From: Candidatus Limnocylindrales bacterium
GTDB taxonomy: Bacteria > Chloroflexota > Limnocylindria > Limnocylindrales > CSP1-4
Length of the DNA: 55,533 nt
Reading direction: 5' to 3'
NCBI GenBank assembly: GCA_036561685.1
Contig: DATBOX010000162.1
Location: forward strand, 1-55,533
Below the pieces are notes generated by a model. It made no database searches. It was not told where the DNA came from and was given only the letters and a program-made list of their open reading frames with translations. Below are positions 19,749-34,814 of the stretch, in pieces (position 1 is the stretch's first letter; each line of letters starts with the position of its first letter). Made by a program: the position numbers and the translations under genes.

Positions 19749-19776
19749 GGGGCTCTCGCGGCCGATCCAGCAGCCC

Positions 19777-20670: not shown

Positions 20671-20689
20671 GCTGGGTCCTCCGATCCGG

Positions 20690-21490
20690 CTATTGGGTCG
20701 CCGTCAGGCCGCCGTCGATCCCCAGCACCTGGCCGGTGATGAAGGACGCCGCGTCCGAGCACAGGAAGATGGCCGGCCCCGCCAGGTCGCGGGTCTCGCC
20801 CACCCGGCCCAGGGGGATGCGGCCGACGATGCCCGCCTTGAAGGCGGGATCGGCCAGGAGCGTGGCCACCTGCGGCGTGTCGACGAAGGTGGGCATGATG
20901 GCGTTCACCCGGATGGCGTAACGGGCCCATTCGGTCGCCCACTGGCGCGTCAGCGAGCTGATGGCGCCCTTGGCCGCGACATAGGCGGAGTAGCCGGCGT
21001 TGATGCCCAGGTTGGCCCGCACCGACGAGATGTTGAGGACGGCGCCGCCATGGCCGCGCTCGATCATGTGGCGCACGACCGGCTGGGTGGGCACGATCGT
21101 GCTGCGCAGGTTGAGCTCCATGATCCAGTCCCAGTCCTGGCGCGGGTAGGCCTCGGCCGGATGGAGGACCTTGCCGGCGCCGCCACCGACGGCGTTGACC
21201 AGGATGTCGATCGCGCCGAAGTGATCGACCACATGGGCCACCGCGGCCTCCGCCGAGGCCTCGTCGGTCACGTCGGCGAGCACCGCCACGGCCTCCCCGC
21301 CGACGCCCTTCACCCGCTGCACCGCGACATCGAGCGTCTCCGCCGTCCGTCCCACGACCGCGATGCGCGCACCGGCCCCGGCCAGGGCCTCGGCCAGGGC
21401 CGCTCCGATGCCGCCCCCGCCGCCGGTCACGATAGCGACCCGTCCGGCCAGGCTGAAGACGTCGAGGCCGGCCATACCCTGCTCGCTCAT
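20690..21490 (-). CDS. SDR-family oxidoreductase
   Basis: 266 aa. VTGGGGGIGAALA, NAVG and YVAAKGA are present. The start overlaps the transaldolase stop (21487-21490). Confidence 0.9.
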   Translation of the reverse strand: MSEQGMAGLDVFSLAGRVAIVTGGGGGIGAALAEALAGAGARIAVVGRTAETLDVAVQRVKGVGGEAVAVLADVTDEASAEAAVAHVVDHFGAIDILVNAVGGGAGKVLHPAEAYPRQDWDWIMELNLRSTIVPTQPVVRHMIERGHGGAVLNISSVRANLGINAGYSAYVAAKGAISSLTRQWATEWARYAIRVNAIMPTFVDTPQVATLLADPAFKAGIVGRIPLGRVGETRDLAGPAIFLCSDAASFITGQVLGIDGGLTATQ

Positions 21491-22587
21491 GCCGGCCGCA
21501 CGTCGGGGTCCGGCAGCATCACGTCGCGGACGGCGCCGACGAGGTCGTGGTACGACCGGATGAAGCCGCGCAGGGTGCGCACCGTCGCGCCGTACGTGTC
21601 GAACTCGGGGATCGAGAGGCCGTCGGGCTCGCAGGCTCGCCCGAAGTCGGGGATCCGGGCGGCCAGGTCGGCCACGAGGTCCGGGTCGACCGGCACGTCG
21701 ATGCGCGGCTGCGGGTCGATGCCGCTCTCGTTGAAGCGGACCTGCCAGGCGTGCGGCATGGTCAGGATGACGTCGCCGCCGACGAGCTCCGTCCAGTGGA
21801 GCCGGTGGCGATACGCCGCCGCGAGCAGGCGCGTCCGGTAGCCCCGCTCCCGGTAGATGCTGACGGCGCGCTTGAAGGCCGCGATGCCGGCCCAGTCGAG
21901 CGCATCGGGGTCGATGGCGACGCCGTCCCGCTCGACCAGCACGCGCATCCAGTCATCCAGCCGGCCGATCATCATCGTGCACACCGGCGACATGGCCGAG
22001 ACATCGCCGCCCGACGCCGTCCGCGTCTCGAGCCCCCGCTCCACCGCCTCCCCCACCGCCAGGGCCTGGGCGACGGTGAAGCTGACCGTGGCGTTGATGT
22101 TCACGCCTTCGGCGGTCGCCCGCTCCAGGGCCTGCAGGCCGGCGCTGGTGGCCGGGAACTTGACCTGGATGTTCGGGGCGAGGCCGGCGAAGTGGCGGCC
22201 CTGGCTCAGCATCCGGTCGGCGTTGCGGTAGTTGGCCGGGTCGGTCTGCAGCGACAGGCGGCCCTTGCGTCCGCCCGTGGCGCGGAAGACCGGTTCCAGG
22301 ACCGCGGCGCCGCTGACCGCCATCTCCTCGACCAGCGCCCAGGTCAGGTCCACCTCGGTCCAGGACGGGTTCCCGGCGATGAGCTGGGCCAGCCGCGGCA
22401 GCCAGTGCGCCTTCTCCTTGCGCATGACCTCGAGGACGATCGTGGGGTTGGAGGTGGCACCGGTCGCGCCGCGCGCGACGGCGTACTGCAGCTCCTCCAC
22501 CGCGCAGGAGTCGTTCCAGTAGTCGGTGGGTGTGTCCCTGACCATCGCCGCGAGCGGGCTGCGGGCCGGCGCCTCTGCCTGGGTCAT
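21487..22587 (-). CDS. Transaldolase-family protein
   Basis: 366 aa. GATSNPTIV, LSLQTDP, IQVKFPAT (Schiff-base Lys) and NATVSFT are present. Confidence 0.85.
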   Translation of the reverse strand: MTQAEAPARSPLAAMVRDTPTDYWNDSCAVEELQYAVARGATGATSNPTIVLEVMRKEKAHWLPRLAQLIAGNPSWTEVDLTWALVEEMAVSGAAVLEPVFRATGGRKGRLSLQTDPANYRNADRMLSQGRHFAGLAPNIQVKFPATSAGLQALERATAEGVNINATVSFTVAQALAVGEAVERGLETRTASGGDVSAMSPVCTMMIGRLDDWMRVLVERDGVAIDPDALDWAGIAAFKRAVSIYRERGYRTRLLAAAYRHRLHWTELVGGDVILTMPHAWQVRFNESGIDPQPRIDVPVDPDLVADLAARIPDFGRACEPDGLSIPEFDTYGATVRTLRGFIRSYHDLVGAVRDVMLPDPDVRPA

Positions 22588-22610
22588 ATGGGGATGGTAT
22601 CATCATCATC

Positions 22611-22624
22611 GATAATCGATTATC
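22611..22624. promoter_or_regulatory. Perfect 14-bp palindrome GATAATCGATTATC in a 53-bp divergent intergenic region, a candidate operator
   Basis: Read directly from the sequence; it is its own reverse complement. It is centred 23-24 nt upstream of the ABM ATG (22641) and about 30 nt upstream of the transaldolase ATG (22587). Confidence 0.5.
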
Positions 22625-22640
22625 CGTACCGGCAGGTCAC

Positions 22641-22928
22641 ATGTCATACGTCGTCACGGCCACCTGGAAAGCGAAGCCCGGCGAGGAAGAGGCCGTCCGC
22701 GAGCTCCTGGGCCGCATCGCCGCCGCCTCGCGGGAAGAGCCGGGCTGCCTGGCCTTCTGGGCCCACCGGTCCGTGGCCGAGCGCGGCACGTTCTTCCTCT
22801 ACGAGCAGTACACGTCCGAGCAGGCCTTCCGGGAGCATGCGGCGTCGGCTCACGTCCGGGACATCGTCCTGGACGACGCCGTCGCCCGGCTGGCCGTCCG
22901 GCAGCGCGAGTTCTTCGAGACGCTCTGA
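22641..22928 (+). CDS. ABM-domain (antibiotic biosynthesis / quinol-type) monooxygenase
   Basis: 95 aa. MSYVVTATWKAKPGEEEAVRELL...EPGCLAFWAHRS......FFLYEQYTSEQAFREHAASAH is the classic YgiN-like ABM pattern. Confidence 0.85.
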   Translation: MSYVVTATWKAKPGEEEAVRELLGRIAAASREEPGCLAFWAHRSVAERGTFFLYEQYTSEQAFREHAASAHVRDIVLDDAVARLAVRQREFFETL

Positions 22929-22942
22929 AGGAGGCCCCGGCC

Positions 22943-24697
22943 ATGGCGGAGACGGAGGAGATCCTGGGCCAGTTCCTGGGCGACGCGTCGTTCCCCGTCG
23001 CCTGGGCTTCCGACGTCGAGAAGGGCTTCTTCTGGGTCTTCGACGACCTCCACTGCCCCCACCCCATCAGCCCCATGTTCTTCGACATCGGGGGCTGGTG
23101 GCTGAGCTGCGATCACATGTTCCGCCGCTTCGGCACGCCGTTCGCGGTCGACTGGCTGGCCAAGAACGTCAACGGCTACGTCTACACCACGGCCATCCCG
23201 GCCGATCCCGACCTGCGCATCGACGCCACCGAGTACAGCGCCCGCTACGGGGCACGGGTGCCGCGCGATGCCACCTACGCCTCGACGATCGGGCCGTATC
23301 TGGACGCCGTGCTGCCCGTGTACGGCCAGCACTTCGCCGACTGGTGGCGCGAGCGGCTGCGCCCGGAGATGGAGCGCAACTTCGCCTTCCTGGAGGGTCG
23401 CCTGGATGAGGCCGAGCGGCTGAGCCTGCCCGAGATGGCCTGCGTCCTGGAGGACGCCATCGACATCCACGACCGCCACTGGAAGATCCACTGGATGCTC
23501 AACTTCGCCCAGCTGTCGGCCACGCTCAACCTGCGGGCGGTCATGGAGCGCACCCGGGGCAGCGTCGACGAGAGCCTGCTGGGGCGACTGCAGAACTCGG
23601 CCTCGGATCGCAACTGGGACTCCATCGAGGCCCTCTGGCGCCTGAAGAACGAGGTCCGCGACGACGCGTTGCTGCGGGCCGCGTTCGGGGCGACCGGGCC
23701 GGGCGAGATCGGCCGGGCCCTGCAGGCCTCCGAACGGGGCCGCCGCTTCATCAGCGAGCGAGTCGAGCCGTACCAGCGCGAGTTCGGCTGGCACGCCGTG
23801 TGGAGCCACGAGTTCATCTACCCCACCGCGCGCGAGGACATGGGCCCGGTCCTGGAGTTGGTGCGGGGCTACCTGGACACCGACTACGACTACCCCTCGG
23901 CTATCGAGGCCATGCGGCGCGACATCGCCGCCGCCTCACAGGAGATCCTGGCTGGACTCAGCGGCGAGGCCCTGGAGGCGATGCGCGCGGCCAACGAGGT
24001 CAACCTGCGCATGGCGCCGCTGACGCCGGACCACCACTTCTACATCGACCAGGGCGCCAACGCGCACGTGCGCCTGGTGCTCATGGCCATCGGCCGCAAG
24101 CTCGTCGCCGACGGCCGGCTGGACCAGCCCGACGACGTCATGTTCCTGCGCTACAACGAGCTGCGAGCGCTCATCGGGGCGGCCGGGTCCATCGACGCGC
24201 GCGGCCTCATCGGCACGCGACGGGCGGAGCGCAAGGTCGCCGAGGCCATCCATCCGCGTGACTGGGTCGGCACCGTCACCCCGTCGCAGCTGGCCTTCCC
24301 CTACCTCGTCAACTGGGGCTACCCCGACCGGTTCTACCAGCAGCAGTCGGCCGACGACCGCCGCATCACCGGCATCGGGGCGTCACCCGGCACGATCGAG
24401 GGCACCGCGCGGGTCGTCCTCACGGTGGAGGAGTTCGACGAGGTCCGCGAGGGCGACATCCTCGTCTGCCAGATGACCAACCCGGCCTGGGTCGTGCTGT
24501 TCACCAAGATCGCCGGGCTCGTCACCGACACCGGCGGCCTGACCTCGCACCCGGCCGTCCTGTCGCGCGAGTTCGGCATCCCGGCCGTCATCGGCACGTC
24601 GATCGCCACCCACCGCATCTCCACCGGCGACCGCCTCCGCCTGGACGGGTCGGCGGGCGTGGTGGAGATCCTGGCCCGCGCGCGGCTCGCCACCTAG
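22943..24697 (+). CDS. PEP-utilising-enzyme mobile (phosphohistidine swivel) domain protein with an unassigned ~450-aa N-domain; PpsA-like architecture, no ATP-grasp
   Basis: 584 aa. The C-terminal ~90 aa read ITGIGASPGTIEGTARVV...ILVCQMTNPAWVVLFTKIAGLVTDTGGLTSHPAVLSREFGIPAVIG (His536 at 24548-24550). I recognise no ATP-grasp motifs in the N-terminal region. A substrate domain followed by a C-terminal swivel His is the layout of phenylphosphate synthase alpha and of the C-terminal two thirds of rifampicin phosphotransferase. Confidence 0.85.
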   Translation: MAETEEILGQFLGDASFPVAWASDVEKGFFWVFDDLHCPHPISPMFFDIGGWWLSCDHMFRRFGTPFAVDWLAKNVNGYVYTTAIPADPDLRIDATEYSARYGARVPRDATYASTIGPYLDAVLPVYGQHFADWWRERLRPEMERNFAFLEGRLDEAERLSLPEMACVLEDAIDIHDRHWKIHWMLNFAQLSATLNLRAVMERTRGSVDESLLGRLQNSASDRNWDSIEALWRLKNEVRDDALLRAAFGATGPGEIGRALQASERGRRFISERVEPYQREFGWHAVWSHEFIYPTAREDMGPVLELVRGYLDTDYDYPSAIEAMRRDIAAASQEILAGLSGEALEAMRAANEVNLRMAPLTPDHHFYIDQGANAHVRLVLMAIGRKLVADGRLDQPDDVMFLRYNELRALIGAAGSIDARGLIGTRRAERKVAEAIHPRDWVGTVTPSQLAFPYLVNWGYPDRFYQQQSADDRRITGIGASPGTIEGTARVVLTVEEFDEVREGDILVCQMTNPAWVVLFTKIAGLVTDTGGLTSHPAVLSREFGIPAVIGTSIATHRISTGDRLRLDGSAGVVEILARARLAT

Positions 24698-24710
24698 GAG
24701 GCTGGTCACG

Positions 24711-25406
24711 ATGGCCGGCGTCGTGTCGCGCAGCGTGCTGGCGGACCAGATCCGCGACCACCTGCTCGAGGGCATCCTGAGCGGCCGCTTCCCGCCCCAC
24801 TCGCGCATCGTGGAGACGCAGGTGGCCCGTGAGCTCGGCACGAGCCAGGCCCCCGTCCGCGAGGCGTTGCGCGCCCTGGAGGGGATCGGTGTCGTGCAGA
24901 TCTCACCCTTCCGCGGCGCGCGGGTGCGGCGGCCCAGCCGGCAGGAGCTGCTGGGGGCCTACAGCGTCCGGGCCGCCCTGGAGGTGCTGGGGGCCCGCCA
25001 GGCCGTGCCGCGCATGACCGACACCGACGTGGCCGAGTTGCTCGGCTTTGGCGAGGCCATGGAGACCGCCGCCCGGGCGGGCGACGGGCGGGCCGTGGCG
25101 GAGGCCGACGCCGCCTTCCACGGCCGCATCGTCGAGCTGGCCGCCAATCCGACCCTGCTCGGCATGTGGCAGTCACTCGCGCCGTTCTCGCGCACCTACA
25201 TGAGCCTGGTCGGGCCGGGCGCCGACCCCGAATGGTCGGCCCACCTGCACGCGCCGATCCTCGACGGGTTGCGGGCGCGGGACGTGGAGGCCGTCGTGCA
25301 GGCGCTGGAGACCCACTTCGTCGAGGCACGTGAGAACATGGCCGGGCGCCTCGCCGAGGCCGGCGATCCGGCCGGGGACGCCGTCGGAGCACAAGGGAGA
25401 GCATGA
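24711..25406 (+). CDS. GntR-family transcriptional regulator (FadR/FCD subfamily)
   Basis: 231 aa. It has the wHTH ETQVARELGTSQAPVREALRALEGIGVV followed by an all-helical FCD-type C-domain (AFHGRIVELAANP). Confidence 0.9.
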   Translation: MAGVVSRSVLADQIRDHLLEGILSGRFPPHSRIVETQVARELGTSQAPVREALRALEGIGVVQISPFRGARVRRPSRQELLGAYSVRAALEVLGARQAVPRMTDTDVAELLGFGEAMETAARAGDGRAVAEADAAFHGRIVELAANPTLLGMWQSLAPFSRTYMSLVGPGADPEWSAHLHAPILDGLRARDVEAVVQALETHFVEARENMAGRLAEAGDPAGDAVGAQGRA

Positions 25407-26290
25407 CCTCGCAGCTGCAGCTCTCGGAGGAGATGTCGGCCGGGGGCGCCCGTCTCCGCATCGACGTCCATGGCGGGGAACCGCGCGCCCACGTCCTCGA
25501 CGACATGAGCTTCATGAACTACCGCCTGGCCGACGTGCGGATCGCGCCGCAGGTGACGCTCGCCGAGCCGGACATCGTGTGGCTCCACGACGGCGACAAG
25601 GCGGTCACCTACGACGGCCGACGCATGACCTTCCGCGGCTCGTGGCCGGCCGGGCCCATCCAGAAGGTCGTCGTGGCGATGCTCGCCCTGCGCATGGAGG
25701 CGGCCGGCCTGCACCCCTTCCACGCCTCGGCCGTCCGCTACCACGACCGCACGGTGCTCTTCCTGGGCGGCGAGTCCAACCACGGCAAGTCGATGGGCCA
25801 GATCGAGGCCTGCCGCCGCGGCGCCCTGCTGGTCTCGACGGAGACGACGGTCATCGACGAGGGCGGCCGCGCCGTGCTCGGCTCCAAGGAGCCCTTTATC
25901 AAGCGCCGCACGGAAGGCACCGAGCGGGCCGACAAGGCTTCGCCGGACCGGGGCGTGGAGAAGTTCTTCGGCGCCATGCCCACGTGGGAGCTCTACCTGG
26001 AGCCGAGCAACGTGGATGTCGTCGTCGTGCCGGCCATCGACGGCAACTTCGAGCCGTCGCTCAGCCCGATGATCCCCTTCGAGCGCCAGTTCCAGACCTT
26101 CCACTCGCTGCAGAATTACTTCCTGCTCAACGAGCTGCTCGCCCCCGGCGCCCCCATGCCCATGGTCGATACCGAGGCCCTGCGGAAGGCCCGGGCCGGC
26201 TTCGTGGAACGCTTCGCCACCCGTCCCTACTACTTCGTCCGCGCCGCCACGCCGCAGGTGCTCCTGGACGAGGTGGATCGGGTGCTGTAG
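25403..26290 (+). CDS. HPr-kinase/phosphorylase-like P-loop protein, function unknown
   Basis: 295 aa. The ATG overlaps the GntR stop (ATGA 25403-25406). FHASAVRYHDRTVLFLGGESNHGKSMGQIEACRRGALLVSTETTVID lines up with the HprK C-domain core (HG.LV...G.GVLITGDSGVGKSETALEL..RGHRLVADD.V). GESNHGKS fits GxxxxGKS. Confidence 0.7.
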   Translation: MTSQLQLSEEMSAGGARLRIDVHGGEPRAHVLDDMSFMNYRLADVRIAPQVTLAEPDIVWLHDGDKAVTYDGRRMTFRGSWPAGPIQKVVVAMLALRMEAAGLHPFHASAVRYHDRTVLFLGGESNHGKSMGQIEACRRGALLVSTETTVIDEGGRAVLGSKEPFIKRRTEGTERADKASPDRGVEKFFGAMPTWELYLEPSNVDVVVVPAIDGNFEPSLSPMIPFERQFQTFHSLQNYFLLNELLAPGAPMPMVDTEALRKARAGFVERFATRPYYFVRAATPQVLLDEVDRVL

Positions 26291-26295
26291 GCCGG

Positions 26296-27165
26296 ATGCG
26301 GCCGTTCACCTACGAACGCCCCACCAGCCTGGCGGAGGCGTTCCGCATCCTGGAGGCGCACGGCGCGGCCGCCTCGATCCTCGCCGGCGGGACCGACCTC
26401 ATCATCCGGTTGCGTGACGGCACGGTCCGGCCGGAGGTCGTGGTCGACCTCAAGGCCATCAAGGAGCGTGACGACGGCCTCCACGAGCGCGACGGCCGCC
26501 TCGTCATCGGCGGCTGGGCGGTCATGACCGACATCGCCGCCGACGCGCGCGTGCGCCGCGACTTCACGGCCCTCGCGGAGGCGGCCCAGGTCGTGGGCTC
26601 GGCCCAGATCCGCAACCGGGCGACGCTCGCCGGCAACATCTGCAACGCCTCGCCGGCGGCCGACACGGCGCCGGCCCTGCTGGTGTACGGCGCGGAGGTC
26701 GTGGCCACCGGCTCGGGCGGGACCCGGCGCGTCCCCATCGACGACTTCTTCGTCGGCCCCGGGCGGACCGCGCTCGGCGCCGGCGAGATCGTCACGTCCA
26801 TCGAGCTGCCGCTGCCGCCCGGCCGACGAGGTGGCGTCCACCTCCGACGCACGCGCCGCCGCGGGCACGACCTGGCGTCCGTGACGCTCGCCTGCGCGGT
26901 GATGGACGACGGGCGCGCCCGACTGGCCTACGGCAGTGTCGGGCCGCGGCCGCTCCTGGTCACCGACGAGAGCGGGGTCCTGGCCGATAGCACGGCCCCG
27001 GCCGAGGCGCGCGACCGCCTGCTCGACCGGCTGCTGGGGGCGGCCAGCCCCTCGCCGAAGTCGATGCGCGCCAGCCCCGCCTACCGCCTGGCGATGCTGC
27101 GCGTCCTGGCCCTCCGGGCGGCCGACATCGCCGCCCGGCGTGTCGCCGGAGGTGCCGCTGCGTGA
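26296..27165 (+). CDS. FAD-binding medium subunit of Mo hydroxylase
   Basis: 289 aa from ATG 26296, 5 nt after the previous stop (internal Met of track ORF 25330..27165). Motifs: ILAGGTDLIIRLRDG and IRNRATLAGNICNASPAAD. Confidence 0.9.
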   Translation: MRPFTYERPTSLAEAFRILEAHGAAASILAGGTDLIIRLRDGTVRPEVVVDLKAIKERDDGLHERDGRLVIGGWAVMTDIAADARVRRDFTALAEAAQVVGSAQIRNRATLAGNICNASPAADTAPALLVYGAEVVATGSGGTRRVPIDDFFVGPGRTALGAGEIVTSIELPLPPGRRGGVHLRRTRRRGHDLASVTLACAVMDDGRARLAYGSVGPRPLLVTDESGVLADSTAPAEARDRLLDRLLGAASPSPKSMRASPAYRLAMLRVLALRAADIAARRVAGGAAA

Positions 27166-27722
27166 CCGCCACCGTCCCCATCCGCTGCACCGTGAACGGC
27201 CGGCCGCGGGAGCTGGTCGTGGTCGCCCATCACACGCTGCTCGACGCGCTGCGCGACGACCTTGGCCTGACCGGCACCAAGGAGTGCTGCCTCGTCGGGG
27301 AGTGCGGCGCCTGCACCGTGATCCTCAACGGCCGGAGCGTCGATTCGTGCCTCGTCCTGGCCGCCGAGGCCGATGGCGGCACGATCCTCACGGTCGAGGG
27401 GCTGGCCGTGGACGGCCGCCTGAGCGCCCTGCAGCAGGCCTTCCTTGACACGGGGGCCGCCCAGTGCGGCTTCTGCATCCCCGGCCAGCTCCTGGCCGCG
27501 CACGCCCTCCTGGCGCTCACGCCGCATCCCGATCGGGCCGAGGTGGAAGAGGGCCTCGCCGGGAACCTGTGCCGCTGCGCCGGCTACGAGCAGATCATCG
27601 AGGCCGTGCTGCGGGCGGCCGACGAGCCGGCGGGCGGCGCCCGGGCGGTCGAGCAGCCGATGGTGCGCCAGACGACGTCGGATCCGGCGGCCACGCCGGA
27701 CGCGAGCGTGGCGCCGCAATGA
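27162..27722 (+). CDS. [2Fe-2S]-binding small subunit of Mo hydroxylase
   Basis: 186 aa. The GTG overlaps the previous stop (GTGA). Motifs: CLVGECGACTV...C and CGFCIPGQ...CRCAGY. Confidence 0.95.
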   Translation: MTATVPIRCTVNGRPRELVVVAHHTLLDALRDDLGLTGTKECCLVGECGACTVILNGRSVDSCLVLAAEADGGTILTVEGLAVDGRLSALQQAFLDTGAAQCGFCIPGQLLAAHALLALTPHPDRAEVEEGLAGNLCRCAGYEQIIEAVLRAADEPAGGARAVEQPMVRQTTSDPAATPDASVAPQ

Positions 27723-29965
27723 CCGGCCCCGTCGGCAGCTCACCGGCACGGGGCGGCGGCCGCGACCGCGTCACCGGCCACCAGGTGTACGCCGCCGACA
27801 TCCGCCTCGAGGACGTCCTTCACGTCAAGCTCGTGGCCCTCCCCTGCGCGAGGGCGAGGATCCTGGGCATCGATGCCACCGAGGCGCTGCAGGTGCCCGG
27901 CGTGCGCCTTGTGTTCACGGCTGCCGACCTGCCGCAGCCGGCGCCGCGCTTCGGGCCGCAGCTCAGGGACCGGCCGGTGCTCGCCACGGGCGAGACCAAG
28001 TACCACGGCGATCCGGTGGCCGCGGTCGCGGCCGAGACGCTCGATGCGGCCGAGGCCGGCGTGGCGGCCGTGCGGGTCACCTACGAGGAGTTGCCCGCAG
28101 TCACCTCGATCCACGCGGCCCTGGACCCGGCCGCGCCGCTGGTGCAGGACGCCGCGCTCCGACCAGGCGACGCGCTTGCCGGCCGCAACGTCCTGCGCGA
28201 GCACCACTACGCATGGGGCGACCTGGCCGCCGCCGAGGCCCAGGCGGAGGTGGTCGTCGAAGGTTCGTACACCTTCCCCATGGTCACCCAGTTCGCCATC
28301 GAGCCGCATGCGTTCATGGCCGCGCCCGACGGCGACGGGATCGTGGTCTGGAGCGCCATCCAGCATCCCAACTGGCTCCAGCGGGTCATCGCCTCGCTCC
28401 TGGACCTGCCCCTGGCCAGGGTCCGGGTCATCGCTCCCGATCCGGGCGGCGCGTTCGGCGGCAAGCAGCACGCCAAGTACGAGCCGCTGCTGGCGTTCAT
28501 GGCCCGCCGTCTGGGCCGGCCGGTCCGCCTCGTGCTGACCCTGGAAGAGACGTTCCAGGCGGTTCGCCGAGGCGCGTCCGACGTCCACGTGCGCTCGGGC
28601 TTCCGGCGCGACGGCACCCTCGTCTTCCGCGACATCCGGGCCGACTACCTCATCGGCGCGTACGCCGACATCGCCGACCGGACGGTGGCCAAGGGCAGCT
28701 ACACCTCGGCCGGGCCATACCGGGTGCCGGCGGTCCGCATCGTCGCCCGCAGCGTGCTGTCCCACACGGTGCCCTCGACGGCCTTCCGCGGCTTCGGCAA
28801 CCCGCAGCAGATCTGGGCCGGCGAGTCGAACATGGACGAGGCGGCGCGGACCCTGGGCCTGGACCCGCTGGACCTGCGCCTGCGCAACCTGGCCGAGCGG
28901 GGTGAGACGTTCATCCCCGGTGACACGCCTGCCGACGGCCGCTGGGCCGAGTCGGTCGAGCTCGCGGCGCGCCTCATCGACTGGCGCAAGCCCACGGCTC
29001 CCGGCCGCGGCCGCGGCCTCGCCGTCGGCCTCAAGGAAGGGCCCACGACGGGCCTGTCGTACTCCATCGTGCGCCTCCTGGCCGACGGCAGCGTGATCGT
29101 CTACGCCGGCACGTCCGACATGGGCCAGGGGGCGCGCACGATCTTCGCCCAGATCGCGGCCCAGGAGCTGGGGGCGCCCATGGAGGCCGTGACGGTCGTG
29201 ATGGGCGACACGGCCGTCGTGCCGTACGACCAGCAGACGTCGGCCAGCCGCTCATCCGTCCTGATGGGCAACGCCGTCCTGCTTGCCTGTCGCAAAGTCC
29301 AAGACCAGCTGCGCGCCATGGCCGCGCGGCTGGAGCAGGTCGAGGCGTCGGCGGTGGTCGTGGACGGCGGCACGGTGGCGATCGGGGAGCGCCACTGGCC
29401 GATCGGCGAGGTCCTGGCCCGTGGGCTGGGGCGGCTCGGCGGCGAGCTCATCGGCGTGGGCGAGATGCGCAAGGAGGCGCTCGCCGAGCACCCCCTGGGC
29501 GGCACCGCCGCGTTCTACGAGTTCAACTGCACGGCGGTGGAGGTGGAGGTCGACCGCGCCACGGGCGATATCGTCATCGCCCGCCACGTGACGGTCTCCG
29601 ACGTGGGCAAGGCCCTCAACCCCAGCCAGGTCCGCGGCCAGGACGAGGGCGCGGCCATCATGGGCCTGGGCCACACGCTGATGGAGCACTACATCCTGGA
29701 TGACGCGGGTCGCATCCGGAACCTGGGCGCCATCGACTACCGCATCCCCACCAGCATGGACCTGCCGCTCGCCATGGAGAGCGCCATCGTGGAGAACGGC
29801 GACGGCCCGGGCCCGTACGGCGCGAAGGGCATGAGCGAGGGCGCCCTCCTGGCCATCGCCCCGGCCATCGCGGCGGCCGTGCGCGACGCGACCGGGGTCG
29901 TCATCCGCGAGCTGCCGCTCACGCCCGAGACGGTCTGGCGGGCCCTGCAGGACCCGGTCGGGTGA
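27719..29965 (+). CDS. Xanthine dehydrogenase/aldehyde oxidase-family molybdopterin-binding large subunit (single polypeptide)
   Basis: 748 aa from ATG 27719, which overlaps the previous stop (ATGA). Motifs: GRDRVTGHQVYAADI, STAFRGFGNPQ, GTSDMGQGARTIFAQIAAQELG and GPYGAKGMSEGAL (active-site Glu). The CO-dehydrogenase loop AY(R/x)CSFR is absent. Confidence 0.95.
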   Translation: MTGPVGSSPARGGGRDRVTGHQVYAADIRLEDVLHVKLVALPCARARILGIDATEALQVPGVRLVFTAADLPQPAPRFGPQLRDRPVLATGETKYHGDPVAAVAAETLDAAEAGVAAVRVTYEELPAVTSIHAALDPAAPLVQDAALRPGDALAGRNVLREHHYAWGDLAAAEAQAEVVVEGSYTFPMVTQFAIEPHAFMAAPDGDGIVVWSAIQHPNWLQRVIASLLDLPLARVRVIAPDPGGAFGGKQHAKYEPLLAFMARRLGRPVRLVLTLEETFQAVRRGASDVHVRSGFRRDGTLVFRDIRADYLIGAYADIADRTVAKGSYTSAGPYRVPAVRIVARSVLSHTVPSTAFRGFGNPQQIWAGESNMDEAARTLGLDPLDLRLRNLAERGETFIPGDTPADGRWAESVELAARLIDWRKPTAPGRGRGLAVGLKEGPTTGLSYSIVRLLADGSVIVYAGTSDMGQGARTIFAQIAAQELGAPMEAVTVVMGDTAVVPYDQQTSASRSSVLMGNAVLLACRKVQDQLRAMAARLEQVEASAVVVDGGTVAIGERHWPIGEVLARGLGRLGGELIGVGEMRKEALAEHPLGGTAAFYEFNCTAVEVEVDRATGDIVIARHVTVSDVGKALNPSQVRGQDEGAAIMGLGHTLMEHYILDDAGRIRNLGAIDYRIPTSMDLPLAMESAIVENGDGPGPYGAKGMSEGALLAIAPAIAAAVRDATGVVIRELPLTPETVWRALQDPVG

Positions 29966-32103
29966 CGTTCGTCTACGCCCTGGCGCATCCCCACGACCGG
30001 CCCCTGCCCGAGGTGACCGCCCTGGTCGGCGGCAAGGCGGCCAACCTGGGGGTCATGGCGCGGGAGCTCGACCTGCCTGTGCCGCCCGGCCTCGTCATCA
30101 CCACCGCGGCCTGCCGCGCCTACCTGGCGGGCGGATGGCCGGCCGGCCTCGACGAGGAGATCCGGGCCGGCATGGCGGAGGTGGAGCGGCAGGTCGGGCG
30201 CCGCTTCGGCGATGCGGACGACCCGCTGCTCGTCAGCGTGCGTTCGGGCGCCGCGGTCTCGATGCCAGGGATGATGGACACCATCCTTAACCTGGGCCTG
30301 ACCGACACGACGGAGGCCGGCCTGGCGCAGGTGTCCGGTGATGCGGCCTTCGCGCGCGATTGTCACGACCGCCTGCGGACGATGTTCCGCGACATCGTCG
30401 GGCAGGACGCGCCCGACGACCCGTGGCGGCAGCTCCGCCTCGCGGTCGAGGCGGTGTTCCGGTCGTGGAACAGCGACCGTGCCCGGGCGTACCGCCGGCG
30501 CGAGGGGATCCCCGATGACGCCGGCACCGGCGTGACCATCCAGGCCATGGTCTTCGGCAACCGCGGCTCGGCCTCCGCGACCGGGGTGGTCTTCACGCGC
30601 AACCCGGCGACCGGCGAAGCGGGCCTCTACGGCGACGTGATGTTCGTGGCGCAGGGCGAGGACGTCGTTTCGGGCACGCATCGCACGGAGCCGCTGGCCG
30701 CCCTGGAGGAACGGCTGCCCGCGGTCGCCGCGGAGCTGCGCCGCGACGGCGCCCGCCTGGAGGCGTACTACCGCGACCTGTGCGACATCGAGTTCACCAT
30801 CGAGGAGGGGCGCCTGTGGCTCCTCCAGGTGCGCGTCGGCAAGCGCAGCCCGCGGGCGGCACTGCGGATCGCCCTCGAGATGGCCCTCGACGAGCAGTTC
30901 CCGCTCTCGCGCCGCGAGGCCGTCGAGCGGGTCGTGCCGCTGCTGGCGACCCCGCCCCGGGTCGCCACCGGCCGGCACCGGGATGCCCAGCCGCTGGCGA
31001 TCGGTCTGGCCGCGTCGCCGGGCGTGGCGACCGGCGAGATCGTCACGAACCCCGAGGCCGCCCAAGGGGCCGCCGACGAGGGACGAACGCCGATCCTGGT
31101 GCGGGCCGAGACCTCGCCCGATGACGTCCGCGGCATGGCCCGCGCGGCGGGGATCCTGACGAGCCGTGGCGGCCTGGCGAGCCACGCGGCGGTGGTGGCC
31201 CGCGGATGGGGCCTGCCGGCCGTGGTCGGCGCCCGGGACGTGGAGGTCGGCGCCGGGACCGTGCGCTTCCCCGGCCTGACGCTGGCGGCCGGGGACGTCA
31301 TCACGATCGATGGCGACACCGGCGAGGTCTTCCGTGGCGCCGTGGCGGGAGCCACCGATATCGCGCCCGAGGCGCGGACGCTGCTCGACTGGGCCAGGGA
31401 GCTCGGCGTCGCCATCCCGGAACCGGGCCAGGCGGCAGCGGCCGGAGCCACGCCCCCGGCCCCGGCGGCCAAGCCCGGCGGGACCGCCACGACCGACGAC
31501 TGCATCCAGGCGCTGGCGGTGATCGGCATGGTCGCCGCTGAAGGGGTGGCCCGTGCGGTGATGGCACCGGTCGCCGAGGTCCAGCCGCTCCTGGACCGCC
31601 TCGTGGTGGACGGGAGCGCGTCGGCGCCGGGCGGCACGTACCGCCTCACCGATGCCGGGTGGGCCCGCCGCGCGGAGCTCCTGGCCGCCGAGCAGGCCGC
31701 CATCGGAGCGGACGGGGCGGTCGCCGCCCTGGATGGACTGCTGACCTTCGACGGCCGCGTGAAGGCTGTGGTGACCGACCTGCAGCTACGCCAGGCGGAC
31801 GCCGGACCGGTCCTCAACGACCACGCCGATGCGGCCTACGACGCGGCCGTCGTGGCGCGCCTGGCCGAGCTCCACGTGGAGGCCGCGGCCTGGCTCACCG
31901 GCCTCGAGCCCGGCTGGCCGCGCGCCGGCCGGTATCGCCAGCGCCTGGGCGCGGCCCTGGAGCGGGCCCTGGCAGGCGACCTGCGGTTCGTGGCCTCGCC
32001 ACGCGTGGACAGCTACCACGGCGCCTGGTTCGAGCTGCACGAGGAGCTCATCCTGCTGGCCGGCCGGACGCGAGCCGCCGAGGTCGACGCGGGACGCGCG
32101 TGA
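29962..32103 (+). CDS. Pyruvate,phosphate-dikinase-like protein: ATP-grasp plus phosphohistidine swivel domain, lacking the PEP/pyruvate TIM barrel, with an unassigned ~200-aa C-terminal module
   Basis: 713 aa. The GTG overlaps the Mo-subunit stop (GTGA). ATP-grasp motifs: LVGGKAANLGVM, LLVSVRSGAAVSMPGMMDTILNLGL, TGVVFTRNPATGE and DIEFTIEEGRLWLLQVRVGKR. Swivel motif: ILVRAETSPDDVRGMARAAGILTSRGGLASHAAVVARGWGLPAVVG (His408 at 31183-31185). A Pro/Ala linker follows, and then residues ~510-713 (31489-32100) are unlike the barrel. Confidence 0.85.
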   Translation: MTFVYALAHPHDRPLPEVTALVGGKAANLGVMARELDLPVPPGLVITTAACRAYLAGGWPAGLDEEIRAGMAEVERQVGRRFGDADDPLLVSVRSGAAVSMPGMMDTILNLGLTDTTEAGLAQVSGDAAFARDCHDRLRTMFRDIVGQDAPDDPWRQLRLAVEAVFRSWNSDRARAYRRREGIPDDAGTGVTIQAMVFGNRGSASATGVVFTRNPATGEAGLYGDVMFVAQGEDVVSGTHRTEPLAALEERLPAVAAELRRDGARLEAYYRDLCDIEFTIEEGRLWLLQVRVGKRSPRAALRIALEMALDEQFPLSRREAVERVVPLLATPPRVATGRHRDAQPLAIGLAASPGVATGEIVTNPEAAQGAADEGRTPILVRAETSPDDVRGMARAAGILTSRGGLASHAAVVARGWGLPAVVGARDVEVGAGTVRFPGLTLAAGDVITIDGDTGEVFRGAVAGATDIAPEARTLLDWARELGVAIPEPGQAAAAGATPPAPAAKPGGTATTDDCIQALAVIGMVAAEGVARAVMAPVAEVQPLLDRLVVDGSASAPGGTYRLTDAGWARRAELLAAEQAAIGADGAVAALDGLLTFDGRVKAVVTDLQLRQADAGPVLNDHADAAYDAAVVARLAELHVEAAAWLTGLEPGWPRAGRYRQRLGAALERALAGDLRFVASPRVDSYHGAWFELHEELILLAGRTRAAEVDAGRA

Positions 32104-32130
32104 GCACGATCGTCGCCGCGACCCACGCCT

Positions 32131-32619
32131 TCATGACCGTCCGGCGCTCGCGCCCAGGCTGACGAGAAGCTCGTCCAGTTGCCCCAGCGCCTCGGGCATC
32201 CCGGACGTGGACCCGGATGCGATCGCACCGTCCAGCGCCTCCTTCGAGGGGTAGAGATCGTGCACCGTCAACCGCGTCCTGTCCCCCATCTCCTCGAAGG
32301 TCACCGTGGTGATCTGCTCACCGTCATCGCCCTCGTCGTTGGTCCACACCAGGCGCGAGTGCGGTGTCACTTCGAGGTATCGACCGAAGAACTCGAGGGT
32401 CGAGCCTTCGTAGCCGAACACCAGGCGGTAGCGGCCCCCGACACGTGGATCCGTCTCGCAGGACAGCAGCGTGATGGGAAACGACTTCGGCGTCCACCAG
32501 CGCTCGAGCAACTCAGCCTTGGTCCACGCCTCGAACACGAGGCGCGGCGGGCCGTTGACGGTTCGCGTCACGACGAGCTCTCGCTCCGACGTCCGCTCCA
32601 CCGTCGTGTCGTTCTTCAT
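32131..32619 (-). CDS. SRPBCC-domain protein (AHSA1/START-like)
   Basis: 162 aa. ELVVTRTVNGPPRLVFEAWTKAELLERWWTPK...GGRYR is typical of the Aha1-like SRPBCC family that pairs with ArsR regulators. The start overlaps the ArsR stop (ATGA). Confidence 0.85.
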   Translation of the reverse strand: MKNDTTVERTSERELVVTRTVNGPPRLVFEAWTKAELLERWWTPKSFPITLLSCETDPRVGGRYRLVFGYEGSTLEFFGRYLEVTPHSRLVWTNDEGDDGEQITTVTFEEMGDRTRLTVHDLYPSKEALDGAIASGSTSGMPEALGQLDELLVSLGASAGRS

Positions 32620-32963
32620 CGCACGTTCTCCTTCCGCTCCAGTTCCTCAACGACCTTGTCCAGCTCGTCGAAGCGCGAATCCCAGTGCTGGCGGTACTGC
32701 TCGATCCAGGCCGTCTCCGCTTCGAGGCGGCGCGGGCCAAGCCGGCACGTCCGCACGCGCCCGACCTTCTCCGTGGTGACGAGCTCGGCCTGCTCCAGGA
32801 CACCGACGTGCTTCCTCATGCCCGTGAGGGTCATGTGGAACGCCTGGGCCAGATCGGTGATCGACGCGTCGCCACCTCCGAGCTGCTCCAGCACGCCGCG
32901 TCGGGTGGCGTCCGAGAGCGCGGCGAAGGAGGCATCGAGCCGGCCGTTCAAATACTGAACCAT
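32616..32963 (-). CDS. ArsR/SmtB-family transcriptional regulator
   Basis: 115 aa from ATG 32961-32963 (Met37 of track ORF 32616..33071). FAALSDATRRGVLEQLGGGDASITDLAQAFHMTLTGMRKHVGVLEQAELV is the ArsR wHTH. Confidence 0.85.
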   Translation of the reverse strand: MVQYLNGRLDASFAALSDATRRGVLEQLGGGDASITDLAQAFHMTLTGMRKHVGVLEQAELVTTEKVGRVRTCRLGPRRLEAETAWIEQYRQHWDSRFDELDKVVEELERKENVR

Positions 32964-32975
32964 CCAGTTCAGTAT
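32952..32975. promoter_or_regulatory. 9-6-9 inverted repeat ATACTGAAC-N6-GTTCAGTAT, a candidate ArsR/SmtB operator
   Basis: The arms are perfect. The spacer contains the ArsR start codon (32961-32963). The TGAAC/GTTCA half-sites resemble known SmtB/CzrA-type operators. Confidence 0.55.
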
Positions 32976-33073
32976 GCTCTCACGGATCCGGGCGCGCAAG
33001 GGGGCTCGGCGAATCGGCGGAGACCATCGGCATGCTGAAATGACCAGGCAAGCAGTCAGCTCGGAGGACATCG

Positions 33074-33715
33074 ATGGCCGTGCGTGTTGACCTGAACATC
33101 TCGTTGGACGGTTTCGCGACGACGACCGACCAGACGCCCGAGGACCCGTTCGGGCCCGACTGGGCGCGGCTGGTGGAGGCCTATGTCGCGACCCGTACGT
33201 TCCGCGCCCGGGTGCTGCACGAGACGTCCGGCGAGGGCACGATTGGCGTCGACGACCAGTACGCGCAGGCGTACTTCGCCGAGGTCGGGGCGGAGATCAT
33301 GGGGGCCGGCATGTTCGGGCTCCACGCCGCCGGGGACGATCCGGACTGGCGCGGCTGGTGGGGCGACGAGCCTCCGTTCCACGTCCCGGTGTTCGTGCTG
33401 ACCCACAGGCCACGACCGGTGCTCGAGATGGCGGGCGGCACGACGTTCCACTTCCTCGCCGCGACACCGCGCGAGGCGCTCGACCGCGCGTCAGGGGCCG
33501 CGGGCGGCAAGGATGTGCGGATCGGCGGCGGCGCGACCGTAGCGCGCGAGTTCCTCAGGGCCGGACTCGTCGACCGGCTGCACGTCGCGATCGCCCCGAT
33601 CCTGCTCGGCCGGGGCGTCCGGCTGTGGGACGACCTCCGCGGGTTCGAGGACGGCTACAGCGTGACGTCGGAGGTCGCCCCGAGCGGGACGACCCACCTG
33701 ACCTTCTCGCGCTGA
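33074..33715 (+). CDS. Dihydrofolate-reductase-like (RibD C-terminal domain) family protein
   Basis: 213 aa. VDLNISLDGFATT, the VFVLTH..P-type core, GGGATVAREFLRAGLVDRLHVAIAPILLGRG and RLWD are present. GGAGGA lies 5 nt upstream of the ATG. Confidence 0.85.
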   Translation: MAVRVDLNISLDGFATTTDQTPEDPFGPDWARLVEAYVATRTFRARVLHETSGEGTIGVDDQYAQAYFAEVGAEIMGAGMFGLHAAGDDPDWRGWWGDEPPFHVPVFVLTHRPRPVLEMAGGTTFHFLAATPREALDRASGAAGGKDVRIGGGATVAREFLRAGLVDRLHVAIAPILLGRGVRLWDDLRGFEDGYSVTSEVAPSGTTHLTFSR

Positions 33716-33822: not shown

Positions 33823-34752
33823 ATGACACGCGATCGGAGCACGCCGATGGTCGTCCTGGAACGAGCGCCGATCCCCGCCCTGCCGCCGGAGCACGCCTTG
33901 ATCACCGTGCGGGAGGCGGCCGAGGCCGACTGGCGCGAGTGCGGGCGCATCTGCTACGAGGCCTTCGCCACCCTCGCCAACCGCCATGGCTTCCCGCCCG
34001 ACTTCCCGACCGTGGAGGCGGCATCCGAACCGATCCGCCACCTCATCGAGCACCCCCGGATCCACGGCGTGGTCGCCGAGTGCGACGGCCGGATCCTGGG
34101 CAGCAGCTTCCTGGACGAGCGATCCCTGATCTCGGCCATCGGCCCGGTCAGCGTCGACCCGACGGCCCAGGACGACGGCGTCGGCCGCCTGCTGATGGAA
34201 GCAATGCTCGAGCGCGTCGCCGTCCGCCACGCCCCCGGCGTGCGGCTGGTCCAGATCGCGTACCACAACCGGTCCCTCTGCCTGTACACGAAGCTGGGCT
34301 TCGACGTGCGCGCCACATTCGCCGCGCTGCACGGCGAACCGCTCGGGCTGACGATGCCGGGCTACCGCGTTCGCCGCGCCTACCCCGACGACCTGGCGGC
34401 GTGCGACGCGCTGTGCGTCCGCGTCCACGGCCACGACCGCTCCGGCGAACTCGGGGAGGCCGTCGCGAGCGGCACGGCGCGCGTCGTCGAGCACCTCGGG
34501 CGCATCACCGGCTATACCGCCGGCATCGACTACTGGGACCACTCGGTGGCCGAGACGACCCGCGACCTGCAGGCGCTCGTCGGCGCGGCCGAGGACTTCG
34601 GCACGCCGGGCTTCCTCGTGCCGCTCGACGATGGTGAGCTCTTCCGATGGAGCCTGGCCCACGGGCTGCGCGTCTACTTCGTGACCACGCTCATGACCCG
34701 CGGCATCTACCAGGAGCCGCGCGGCGCCTACATGCCGTCGGTGGGCTACTGA
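33823..34752 (+). CDS. GNAT-family N-acetyltransferase (two-lobed, second lobe degenerate)
   Basis: 309 aa from ATG 33823 (in frame within track ORF 33358..34752). An alternative start is Met at 33847. Acetyl-CoA motif A reads VDPTAQDDGVGRLLMEAM, followed by LYTKLGF. Confidence 0.75.
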   Translation: MTRDRSTPMVVLERAPIPALPPEHALITVREAAEADWRECGRICYEAFATLANRHGFPPDFPTVEAASEPIRHLIEHPRIHGVVAECDGRILGSSFLDERSLISAIGPVSVDPTAQDDGVGRLLMEAMLERVAVRHAPGVRLVQIAYHNRSLCLYTKLGFDVRATFAALHGEPLGLTMPGYRVRRAYPDDLAACDALCVRVHGHDRSGELGEAVASGTARVVEHLGRITGYTAGIDYWDHSVAETTRDLQALVGAAEDFGTPGFLVPLDDGELFRWSLAHGLRVYFVTTLMTRGIYQEPRGAYMPSVGY

Positions 34753-34814
34753 ACCGGCCGGGGCCGAGCTCGGCCGGATCGGCCGAGCCGCGGGTCGTCA
34801 CCGTCCTTGGCCCC

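Follow-up and report, generated by a model that had tools for sequence, protein, structure and literature searches.

In a 55,533-nt stretch of DNA from Candidatus Limnocylindrales bacterium (GenBank assembly GCA_036561685.1, contig DATBOX010000162.1; the whole stretch is called the window here), eight consecutive genes encode the subunits of an XDH-family molybdenum enzyme together with the two parts of a predicted ATP-driven small-molecule dikinase, a 295-aa P-loop protein that resembles phosphoenolpyruvate carboxykinase (PEPCK) and that we call H295, a GntR/FCD regulator and a small ABM-family protein. The reading that we prefer, and to which we assign a probability of roughly 0.45, is that of a catabolic operon under GntR/FCD control whose molybdenum enzyme, dikinase and PEPCK-like phosphotransferase act together. 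It starts from what is observed: the gene content, the domain architectures, the modeled fold of H295, the conservation of the linkage, and a complementary distribution of two types of ATP module among lineages.

An eight-gene unit in uncultured Limnocylindria

The DNA has a G+C content of 72%, matches uncultured Limnocylindria (Chloroflexota), and carries all eight open reading frames on its + strand at the coordinates that a preliminary description of the window had given for them (Table 1). A 14-nt spacer containing GAAGGAGG separates the ABM gene from the gene for the 584-aa protein, and a 13-nt spacer containing TAGGAGG separates the latter from the GntR gene, with GGAGG-type ribosome-binding sites present in both. 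The GntR gene overlaps the H295 gene by 4 nt (ATGA, 25403-25406), 5 nt lie between the H295 gene and the FAD subunit gene, and each later junction is again a 4-nt overlap: GTGA between the FAD and FeS genes (27162-27165), ATGA between the FeS and Mo genes (27719-27722) and GTGA between the Mo gene and the gene for the 713-aa protein (29962-29965). A simple consensus scan of 21400-33200 found no intrinsic terminator and no sigma-70-like promoter on the operon strand, and its sole promoter-like match is a minus-strand site in the divergent intergenic region. Judged by sequence, the eight genes are one tightly coupled, conserved unit, and because the arrangement recurs in dozens of species it is far beyond chance. 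The unit and its junctions, the two swivel histidines (His536 and His408) and the P-loop motifs all read as the preliminary description had them, and a Pfam profile check bore out seven of its eight assignments.

Two proteins with the build of a two-component dikinase

The 584-aa protein matches the Pfam PEP-utilizers domain (PF00391) over residues 502-572, where the swivel His536 sits in GGLTSHPAVLSRE. The motif reads GGLTSH and conforms to the GGxxxH of its class, whose histidine lies within ~50 residues of the C-terminus. PRK08296 (NCBIfam) aligns to the protein over its full length, its last ~200-430 residues can be aligned with the equivalent C-terminal region of RedH, PigC and rifampin phosphotransferase (RPH), and the best match in the PDB is the Listeria rifampin phosphotransferase 5FBS (residues 681-866). 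Orthologues carry a precomputed match to PF27448 (Rph_4th), and in one genome two separate genes encode the Rph_4th part (428 aa) and the swivel part (124 aa). These features support a predicted architecture of an RPH-type substrate-binding domain followed by a C-terminal swivel domain, which is the build of a substrate-binding phospho-carrier.

The 713-aa protein supplies the predicted ATP module, with a second swivel histidine, His408, in GGLASHAAVVARG. It matches PPDK_N (PF01326) with 156 bits, and its residues 20-483 match the truncated PPDK model NF004531 with 504 bits (cut-off 456), a model that we take to represent the M. tuberculosis PpdK type. Plasmid-borne truncated PPDKs, among them those of Rhodococcus and Streptomyces, share ~45-49% identity with the same residues. 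Since PPDK structures align only as far as residue ~480, the PEP/pyruvate TIM barrel is absent. What follows instead, from about residue 500 and over ~230 residues (window 31372-32103), is a fused accessory domain resembling a winged helix-turn-helix (wHTH), a point missed by the preliminary description: this tail corresponds to a protein of ~204 aa that is widespread in stand-alone form. It is 41% identical (E 9e-23) to a 206-aa protein of a Diaphorobacter plasmid, whose gene lies just upstream of a truncated PPDK gene (our locus L173, 8297-8917). The ~204-aa family yields 4014 matches, is frequent in Nocardia, Mycobacterium and Gordonia, and is sometimes named as a MarR-family wHTH protein; in Actinomycetes and some Proteobacteria its genes normally lie just upstream of truncated PPDK genes. 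The partners that are thus paired as separate chains in Actinobacteria and Proteobacteria are here fused in one chain and placed in a molybdenum-enzyme operon. On a low-GC contig (L159, 254-877), a stand-alone tail homologue is encoded two genes upstream of H295, with a cupin gene between them.

Two-component dikinases have been described for phenol (PpsAB), 4-cresol (CreHI) and hydroxyphenylethanones (HpeHI), with AcvAB as a further member; their I component (HpeI) is an ATP-grasp protein and their H component (HpeH) combines RIF-binding-like and swivel domains (PMC12167813). The beta-phosphate of ATP moves to the histidine and from there to a phenolic hydroxyl, ATP being converted to AMP and Pi; replacing the swivel His by Gln abolishes activity, and the H component alone moves phosphate between phenols (PMC12167813). 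The Limnocylindria pair likewise joins an ATP-grasp part to an RPH-type substrate domain with a C-terminal swivel His, as do these enzymes, in two chains, and RPH itself. The 584-aa and 713-aa proteins are therefore built, as far as their domains tell, like two-component small-molecule dikinases, relatives of rifampin phosphotransferase, in accordance with the preliminary description, which had cast the 584-aa protein as the substrate-binding phospho-carrier of an ATP-grasp partner and had aptly compared the pair with phenylphosphate synthase. There are also differences. PpsAB, CreHI and HpeHI have Met two residues before the swivel His, where the 584-aa family has Thr or Val; the Limnocylindria ATP module, unlike that of the PpsAB/CreHI type, belongs to the PPDK and not to the PEP-synthase type and contains both an additional swivel and the fused accessory domain; and the known two-component dikinases feed P450, carboxylase or UbiD-type steps, whereas the partner here is a pterin enzyme.

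H295, a half-size relative of PEP carboxykinase

The motifs GGESNHGKS and LVSTETTVID of H295 begin at residues 122 and 143, the P-loop being G123-ESNH-G128-K129-S130. Residues H107, K129, E147, R169, E174, R175, D177 and D213 are invariant in the family, and K88 is nearly so. At E <= 0.01, H295 has no match in Pfam or NCBIfam, including Hpr_kinase_C (PF07475) and PEPCK_ATP. It has 2870 close homologues; a phmmer search of 1.84 billion representatives (50% clustering) returned 176 proteins at E <= 0.001, many of them fragments, and among the 150 matches listed all were at least 35% identical to the query. Low-GC organisms hold full-length members at 36-44% identity, and a collection of plasmids from cultured bacteria gave no match. 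By its sequence relationships H295 looks like the founder of a narrow new family. A 304-aa gene of Diaphorobacter, located upstream of a PEP-utilizing gene, was considered as a homologue and rejected.

An AlphaFold2 model built on a diverse alignment of 50 sequences (pLDDT 92.5) was compared with known structures using Foldseek. The top 36 matches are all PEPCKs, aligned over both domains (best E 1.8e-7, TM 0.45), and all but two of them are labeled as, or known to be, of the ATP-dependent type. HprK/P ranks next and matches part of the protein (113-200 aligned columns, E 3e-5 to 1e-3, TM 0.23-0.29). A profile of the H295 family matches Thermus PEPCK (E 5.6e-4), with G..GEIQK, HPFHASA and GxxxxGK[ST] aligned without gaps to the PEPCK motifs GEIKK, MHASA and GLSGTGKT, and some family members carry a precomputed PF01293 match. 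The aligned Lys and His are presumably residues of the PEPCK-type Mn site. H295 thus shares with ATP-dependent PEPCK a two-domain fold, a P-loop and the GEIKK- and HASA-aligned motifs; it differs in size, having 295 residues against ~530 (about half, with a target-normalised TM of 0.25-0.29), and in the position that we take to align with Tyr207 of E. coli PEPCK, which is Pro or variable and not conserved. As in HprK/P, an invariant acidic residue (E147) follows the P-loop. The gene context of H295 is entirely different from those of both PEPCK and HprK/P. Model and profile together place H295 nearest to the ATP-dependent PEPCKs as a half-size member of the PEPCK/HprK superfamily, closer to them than to HprK. 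The preliminary description had called it HprK-like, which holds for the superfamily, may hold for the fold, and does not extend to a match with the HprK C-domain profile.

The presence of HprK/P among the structural matches could also point to a regulatory role, in which H295, as a protein kinase/phosphorylase comparable to HprK/P or the PPDK regulatory protein, would turn the oxidoreductase or the swivel protein on and off, and the phosphotransfer proteins would make up a control relay instead of a metabolic step. In the 584-aa protein of the window, the position two residues ahead of His536 is indeed a Thr, a feature shared with regulated PPDK and PEP synthase. That Thr is not conserved among H295 partners, however, in which the position is Thr, Val, Ala or Leu (TSH, VSH, ASH, LSH, LAH, VAH, LCH). 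With no hydroxyl residue conserved there, a phospho-relay onto this position is unlikely, and the candidate mechanism of H295 phosphorylating the Thr is weakened. The PEPCK matches moreover span both domains of H295 and include PEPCK-specific motifs outside the part that matches HprK/P, and in distant loci the identity of H295 (52-69%) is comparable to the values for the Mo and FeS subunits, so that we regard a regulatory role as very unlikely. In the set of genomes from GTDB described below, the median conservation of H295 is 80% compared to 62-75% for the other genes, in a set chosen by H295 similarity; in view of the independently chosen distant loci, we do not rely on H295 being the most conserved gene.

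The molybdenum enzyme

The operon encodes the subunit set of the XDH/aldehyde oxidase family: an FAD subunit, a 2x[2Fe-2S] subunit and a Mo-pterin subunit with hammerhead and MoCoBD domains. The nearest solved structure to the Mo subunit is the alpha subunit of 4-hydroxybenzoyl-CoA reductase (1RM6, E 2.6e-91), followed by quinoline 2-oxidoreductase. The subunit reaches no NCBIfam equivalog cut-off, and its C-terminal GAKGMSEG retains a Glu that presumably occupies the position of the family's catalytic Glu. The FeS subunit matches the NCBIfam models of XdhC and of the glyceraldehyde dehydrogenase gamma subunit below cut-off, with ~177 bits each. The FAD subunit has only 2 Cys and therefore presumably lacks the additional Fe-S insertion known from 4-hydroxybenzoyl-CoA reductase. 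Among plasmid-borne XDH relatives, the best reach at most 38% identity.

Conservation of the linkage in Limnocylindria

An H295 alignment was scanned against one genome per GTDB species (185,579 genomes), yielding ~400 relatives, of which the best 80, chosen by H295 similarity and to that extent a biased set, were taken for locus analysis. Almost all 80 are metagenome-assembled genomes (MAGs) labeled Limnocylindria/CSP1-4 or Chloroflexi/Chloroflexia/Chloroflexota, and one of them shows 98% identity to the window. With few exceptions, tblastn finds in them the order Rph-like 584, GntR, H295, FAD, FeS, Mo. The PPDK-like 713 gene usually stands directly downstream of the Mo gene, though it is sometimes found elsewhere: at a distance of a further 2 kb, on the opposite strand upstream, or separating GntR from H295.

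Neighbors were counted in the 65 Limnocylindria loci that span 12 kb or more, and the counts depend on the tblastn thresholds. The H295 gene adjoins the FAD and FeS genes in all 65 loci, each of these two genes being present in 65/65; the Mo gene was found in 63/65, the Rph-like 584 gene in 61/65, the GntR gene in 59/65 (and in most distant loci also), the PPDK-like 713 gene in 53/65, a metallo-beta-lactamase (MBL)-fold hydrolase gene in 39/65 and a TAL/FSA-like gene in 35/65. The ABM gene was detected in only 5/65 loci, a number that is low partly because the protein is short; in Thermomicrobium roseum, too, an ABM gene lies directly upstream of the Rph-like gene. The ABM protein is an accessory member of the operon rather than part of its core. 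Conservation of the linkage in related genomes, which the preliminary description had made a test of its view, is borne out by these 65 loci and by the distant lineages.

The module in other lineages

Distant loci were obtained from a metagenome scan seeded with the H295 members of 36-44% identity and from gene-context look-ups, and, with T. roseum as the sole exception, all module loci are of metagenome or MAG origin. At 36-60% identity, distant lineages contain the same module, and wherever enough flanking DNA is readable, H295 sits with a dikinase and a pterin enzyme. What changes is the ATP-grasp part: the PPDK-type module of 53/65 Limnocylindria loci is found in 0/27 others, and a stand-alone PPDK_N protein, found in 0/65 Limnocylindria loci, is found in 23/27 others. 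The stand-alone proteins are of the PEP-synthase type and match HpeI (PDB 9GOJ) with E 6e-55. In XDH-linked loci such as L113, L116, L122, L124, L126, L127, L167 and L170, such a protein of ~320 aa replaces the 713-aa protein; these loci include one in a Nitrososphaerales archaeon MAG (L166), where the Rph-like gene stands between the FeS and Mo genes.

The pterin enzyme changes as well. Loci with a G+C content of 0.40-0.67 carry tungsten-type AOR genes (PF02730/PF01314), and no XDH genes were found in them. Such loci (L089, L100, L106, L132, L138, L153, L169) hold genes for an Rph-like protein, a cyclase (PF04199), UPF0261, PPDK_N, H295 and GntR, and a short Bathyarchaeia contig (L179) holds H295, a cyclase gene and an AOR gene. 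Five AOR-type loci (L180, L093, L103, L089, L115) add an acetylene-hydratase-like gene of the DMSO-reductase family and then a Fer4_11 gene. The acetylene-hydratase-like gene directly follows the H295 homologue in L093, L103 and L180, and in L180 (11104-13776), where two AOR genes are nearby, its product matches PDB 2E7Z with E 9e-113. The AOR gene of L153 has an in-frame TAA (6864-6866) in its Cys-rich motif (TTGC*TCPTKC), as does that of L158, which could reflect a pseudogene, an assembly error or recoding; the AOR homologues in L100, L106, L132 and L089 are uninterrupted. A conserved split AOR and selenocysteine were both considered and rejected, because the apparent split came from a split query and only L153 and L158 have an in-frame TAA. 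Several lineages have a gene for a Tm-1-like ATP-binding protein (UPF0261) next to the module (L170 2429-5488, L171 4490-6593, L169 6982-8232); it is paired with a gene for a TIM-barrel protein of the PEP-hydrolase family in L170 and T. roseum, and L170 has an additional ComB-like 2-phosphosulfolactate phosphatase gene.

Among cultured strains, a related XDH and dikinase cluster is present on the megaplasmid of T. roseum DSM 5159 (L171; NC_011961, 56-67 kb), in the order Tm-1-like, PEP hydrolase, GntR, cyclase, PPDK_N, a 205-aa gene, FAD, FAH, ABM, Rph-like, Mo, FeS. The T. roseum Rph-like protein is 50% identical to the 584-aa protein. The 205-aa gene, which occupies the equivalent position, was considered as a homologue of H295 or of the tail and rejected (hhalign probability 0.2%, BLASTP E 0.78); its product has a weak Pfam match to DUF4202.

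A genetic precedent and a proposed order of steps

The preliminary description knew of no characterised Mo-hydroxylase operon with such partners, and the 3hpd cluster of Ensifer adhaerens HP1 is in fact a precedent. There, the XDH-family enzyme HpdA1-4 converts 3-hydroxypyridine only with orf9 (PPDK-like) and orf10 (PEP-utilizing); knock-outs of orf9 and of orf10 each lose growth, and a GntR gene is adjacent (bioRxiv 10.1101/2020.01.08.898148). The study left the mechanism open (bioRxiv 10.1101/2020.01.08.898148). Likened by its published description, 3hpd has in common with the Limnocylindria operon the XDH-family subunits, a PPDK-like protein, a PEP-utilizing protein and GntR. It differs in that HpdA has a fourth, membrane-anchored SRPBCC subunit, whereas this operon has no SRPBCC gene; in that it continues into a maleamate pathway (hpdBCDE), whereas the window genes scanned with Pfam hold no dioxygenase/deformylase/amidase/isomerase set; and in that no PEPCK-like P-loop gene is reported for it. 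XDH matches on Ensifer adhaerens plasmids were considered as the 3hpd cluster and rejected, since they belong to UbiD/amidohydrolase-type clusters without dikinase genes; dikinase genes are absent from the Variovorax and Arthrobacter XDH clusters too. Neither H295 nor the AOR-linked version nor the Limnocylindria operon is described in any paper that a literature search returned.

Under our preferred reading, ATP would be presented by the ATP-grasp module (the 713-aa protein here, the stand-alone PPDK_N of ~320 aa elsewhere), His536 of the 584-aa protein would take the beta-phosphate with release of AMP and Pi, and the RPH-type domain of the same protein would hand it to a phenolic or enolic hydroxyl of a small substrate. 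The molybdenum enzyme would then oxidise or hydroxylate the phosphorylated compound. In the PEPCK reaction, phosphate is exchanged between an enolate oxygen and a nucleotide, and by analogy we infer that H295 would handle the phosphate ester (an enol or aryl phosphate), most plausibly transferring the phosphate to ADP or else removing it otherwise. The substrate may be a hydroxylated (hetero)aromatic compound, or a sugar-derived aldehyde or hydroxy-acid. For the order of steps we infer from 3hpd genetics, by analogy, that the dikinase would act before or together with the molybdenum enzyme, because the 3hpd hydroxylase alone is inactive in vivo.

The same gene content would also suit the opposite order, put forward in the preliminary description, in which the molybdenum enzyme hydroxylates an N-heterocycle or aromatic compound and the dikinase phosphorylates the new hydroxyl. 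Phenolic dikinases take many phenols, and the PPDK-like gene comes last in the operon. In the only studied case, 3hpd, however, the hydroxylase alone gives no conversion, which a route starting with hydroxylation would not predict, and gene order is a variable guide, with the Rph-like gene standing before, inside or after the Mo genes. We therefore disfavor this order and consider it distinctly unlikely.

The 3hpd result is compatible with yet another arrangement, in which the phosphotransfer proteins act not on a substrate but on the pterin enzyme or its cofactor, by activation, insertion or repair. The module accompanies three unrelated pterin families (XDH, AOR and the acetylene-hydratase-like members of the DMSO-reductase family), and neither the operon nor the scanned neighboring genes include one for an XdhC-type chaperone. 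Against this, the three families use different cofactor forms, so that a common cofactor step is not obvious, and XDH-family clusters in general do without these proteins. The RPH-type domain, moreover, binds small molecules in all studied members (PMC12167813). A role in maturation is in our view highly improbable.

The exchange of pterin partners also allows our preferred reading to be generalised into a phospho-handle cycle, in which ATP-to-AMP phosphorylation of a hydroxyl would ready the substrate for a Mo or W enzyme, either XDH or AOR, and the PEPCK-like protein would return the energy-rich phosphate to ADP; in some loci of anaerobe type, an acetylene-hydratase-like enzyme accompanies the module. 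As a general scheme this is rather unlikely, but if true, it would be an undescribed ATP-coupled mode of Mo/W catalysis in Bacteria and Archaea.

Neighboring genes and a putative operator

The region between the operon and the divergent minus-strand genes contains the palindromic element TCATCGATAATCGATTAT, with a perfect 10-nt overlapping palindrome at 22611-22624, and holds the area's only sigma-70-like match, on the minus strand. Comparison with the orthologous intergenic regions of L007, L009 and L011 (four species with the window) shows that the palindrome has an invariant core and divergent flanks. The element is probably the operator of the GntR/FCD regulator.

Table 1. Coordinates of the operon genes, the palindromic element and adjacent genes in the window
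Feature	Position	Strand	Basis
MBL-fold hydrolase	19777-20670	-	Pfam, PDB matches
SDR, gluconate-5-dehydrogenase-like	20690-21490	-	Pfam, PDB matches
TAL/FSA-family (transaldolase) gene, 366 aa	21487..22587	-	Pfam TAL_FSA
Palindromic element TCATCGATAATCGATTAT, putative operator	22605..22624		Divergent promoter region
ABM-family small protein, 95 aa, first operon gene	22641..22928	+	Pfam ABM, E 1.2e-19
Rph-like/swivel protein, 584 aa ('H' component)	22943..24697	+	Pfam PEP-utilizers
GntR/FCD transcriptional regulator, 231 aa	24711..25406	+	Pfam GntR + FCD
P-loop protein H295, 295 aa	25403..26290	+	AlphaFold2/Foldseek, family profile
FAD-binding subunit of XDH-family enzyme, 289 aa	26296..27165	+	Pfam FAD_binding_5 + CO_deh_flav_C
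2x[2Fe-2S] subunit, 186 aa	27162..27722	+	Pfam Fer2 + Fer2_2
Molybdopterin-binding catalytic subunit, 748 aa	27719..29965	+	Pfam Ald_Xan_dh_C + MoCoBD_1 + MoCoBD_2
ATP module, PPDK-type, 713 aa	29962..32103	+	Pfam PPDK_N + PEP-utilizers; NF004531

The minus strand carries a row of genes (13372-22587) for the TAL/FSA-like protein, the gluconate-5-dehydrogenase-like SDR, the MBL hydrolase, a GMC protein, an aldehyde dehydrogenase, a LacI regulator, a DHDPS-family protein and a further SDR. The GMC protein resembles FAD-dependent glucose/fructose dehydrogenases. The row, which shares a promoter region with the molybdenum operon, looks like oxidative sugar or sugar-acid catabolism, headed by the TAL/FSA-like gene. 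The product of this gene scores 109 bits against a transaldolase cut-off of 367 and, being far below every transaldolase cut-off, is a divergent member of its family; in L139 and L147 the gene is found within the cluster, and in L167 it is located downstream of Mo. MBL-fold homologues, besides their frequency in Limnocylindria, occur in 7/11 other XDH loci, and the SDR and MBL genes may belong to the same pathway as the molybdenum operon. Degradation of vitamin B6, a 3-hydroxypyridine aldehyde, was suggested by the GMC, SDR and MBL neighbors; it was rejected because the PDB matches are glucose/fructose dehydrogenase, gluconate 5-dehydrogenase and a generic MBL protein, and no pyridoxal-pathway enzymes are among them.

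On the other side of the operon, ArsR-type HTH_20 and AHSA1/SRPBCC genes follow immediately on the minus strand (32131-33071). The AHSA1-type gene (32131-32619, opposite strand) is conserved in 0/65 loci, and the two genes, not being conserved in the 65 related loci, are probably unrelated to the operon. A phosphotriesterase-family gene lies 2.5 kb downstream of the operon (34647-35732); its product has phospho-furanose lactonase as its best NCBIfam match (142 bits, below cut-off), and a gene of this family is also near the archaeal module (L166, 13488-14561).

The neighbors raise the main alternative for the substrate. In an oxidative, non-phosphorylative sugar route, an aldolase would free an aldehyde such as glyceraldehyde, glycolaldehyde or lactaldehyde, the molybdenum enzyme or, in anaerobes, AOR would oxidise it to the acid, and the dikinase and/or H295 would phosphorylate the hydroxy-acid or pyruvate, leading into glycolysis; oxidation would come first and phosphorylation second, which is near the order of the preliminary description. 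Aldolases do recur around the module (the TAL/FSA-like gene with its 35/65 occurrences, the DHDPS-family gene in the window and HMGL-like genes in low-GC loci), alongside GMC, SDR sugar-dehydrogenase-like, lactonase-like, SIS, ROK and sugar ABC transporter genes. GAPDH and PGK genes adjoin the module in 4/10 AOR loci and in the archaeal locus, and the chemistry of PEPCK concerns the enolate of pyruvate. This route would also account for XDH-type and AOR-type enzymes being interchangeable partners of the module: to our knowledge, the one textbook case of the two families doing the same job is the oxidation of glyceraldehyde in the modified Entner-Doudoroff pathway of Archaea. On the other hand, ordinary kinases phosphorylate glycerate, for which an AMP-forming dikinase would be costly, and in 3hpd the Mo step itself is genetically dependent on the dikinase. 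Among solved structures, the closest to the Mo subunit are those of 4-hydroxybenzoyl-CoA reductase and quinoline oxidoreductase rather than of aldehyde oxidoreductases, and the subunit scores lower on the glyceraldehyde dehydrogenase model than on the XdhA model. Every characterised RPH-type dikinase, finally, acts on hydrophobic or aromatic hydroxyls (PMC12167813). On balance we consider the sugar route unlikely.

Weight and significance of the evidence

Several observations weigh against our preferred reading of a dikinase, molybdenum enzyme and PEPCK-like phosphotransferase acting together, and keep it tentative. The window neighbors resemble sugar or sugar-acid catabolism and not aromatic catabolism, and we know of no AOR-type enzyme, the partner in lower-GC lineages, that hydroxylates rings. 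The T. roseum cluster is without an H295 homologue, and the role proposed for H295 is drawn from fold analogy only. A simple dikinase model has no need of the swivel His that the 713-aa protein carries itself. In 3hpd, no phosphorylated intermediate was detected (bioRxiv 10.1101/2020.01.08.898148). Finally, PpsA, CreH and HpeH are ~45% identical among themselves (PMC12167813), a close kinship that the 584-aa protein does not share: compared via PEP-utilizing enzymes of Rhodococcus and Bacillus, the former from cre/hpe-like clusters, its identity is ~25%, and for this reason the 584-aa protein may not act on phenols.

The dikinase family and the pairing of an XDH-family enzyme with a dikinase, the latter through one genetic precedent, are already known. 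What looks new is the dedicated PEPCK-like third protein, the joining of a truncated PPDK and its small partner in one chain, the replacement of the molybdenum enzyme by AOR and acetylene-hydratase-like enzymes, and the spread of the module into Archaea. Why a Mo hydroxylase needs an ATP-driven dikinase has been a question since the 3-hydroxypyridine study, and the locus described here shows that the pairing is no one-off: it reaches Archaea, survives a swap of the molybdenum enzyme for a tungsten-type one, and brings with it a third, undescribed phosphotransferase. Because the locus offers a defined set of proteins, conserved residues, a predicted operator and, in T. roseum, a cultured relative as an experimental entry, the mechanism is testable. 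The module is common in Limnocylindria, which are uncultured and come largely from soil, peat and freshwater metagenomes, and it may mark an unrecognised route of carbon turnover.

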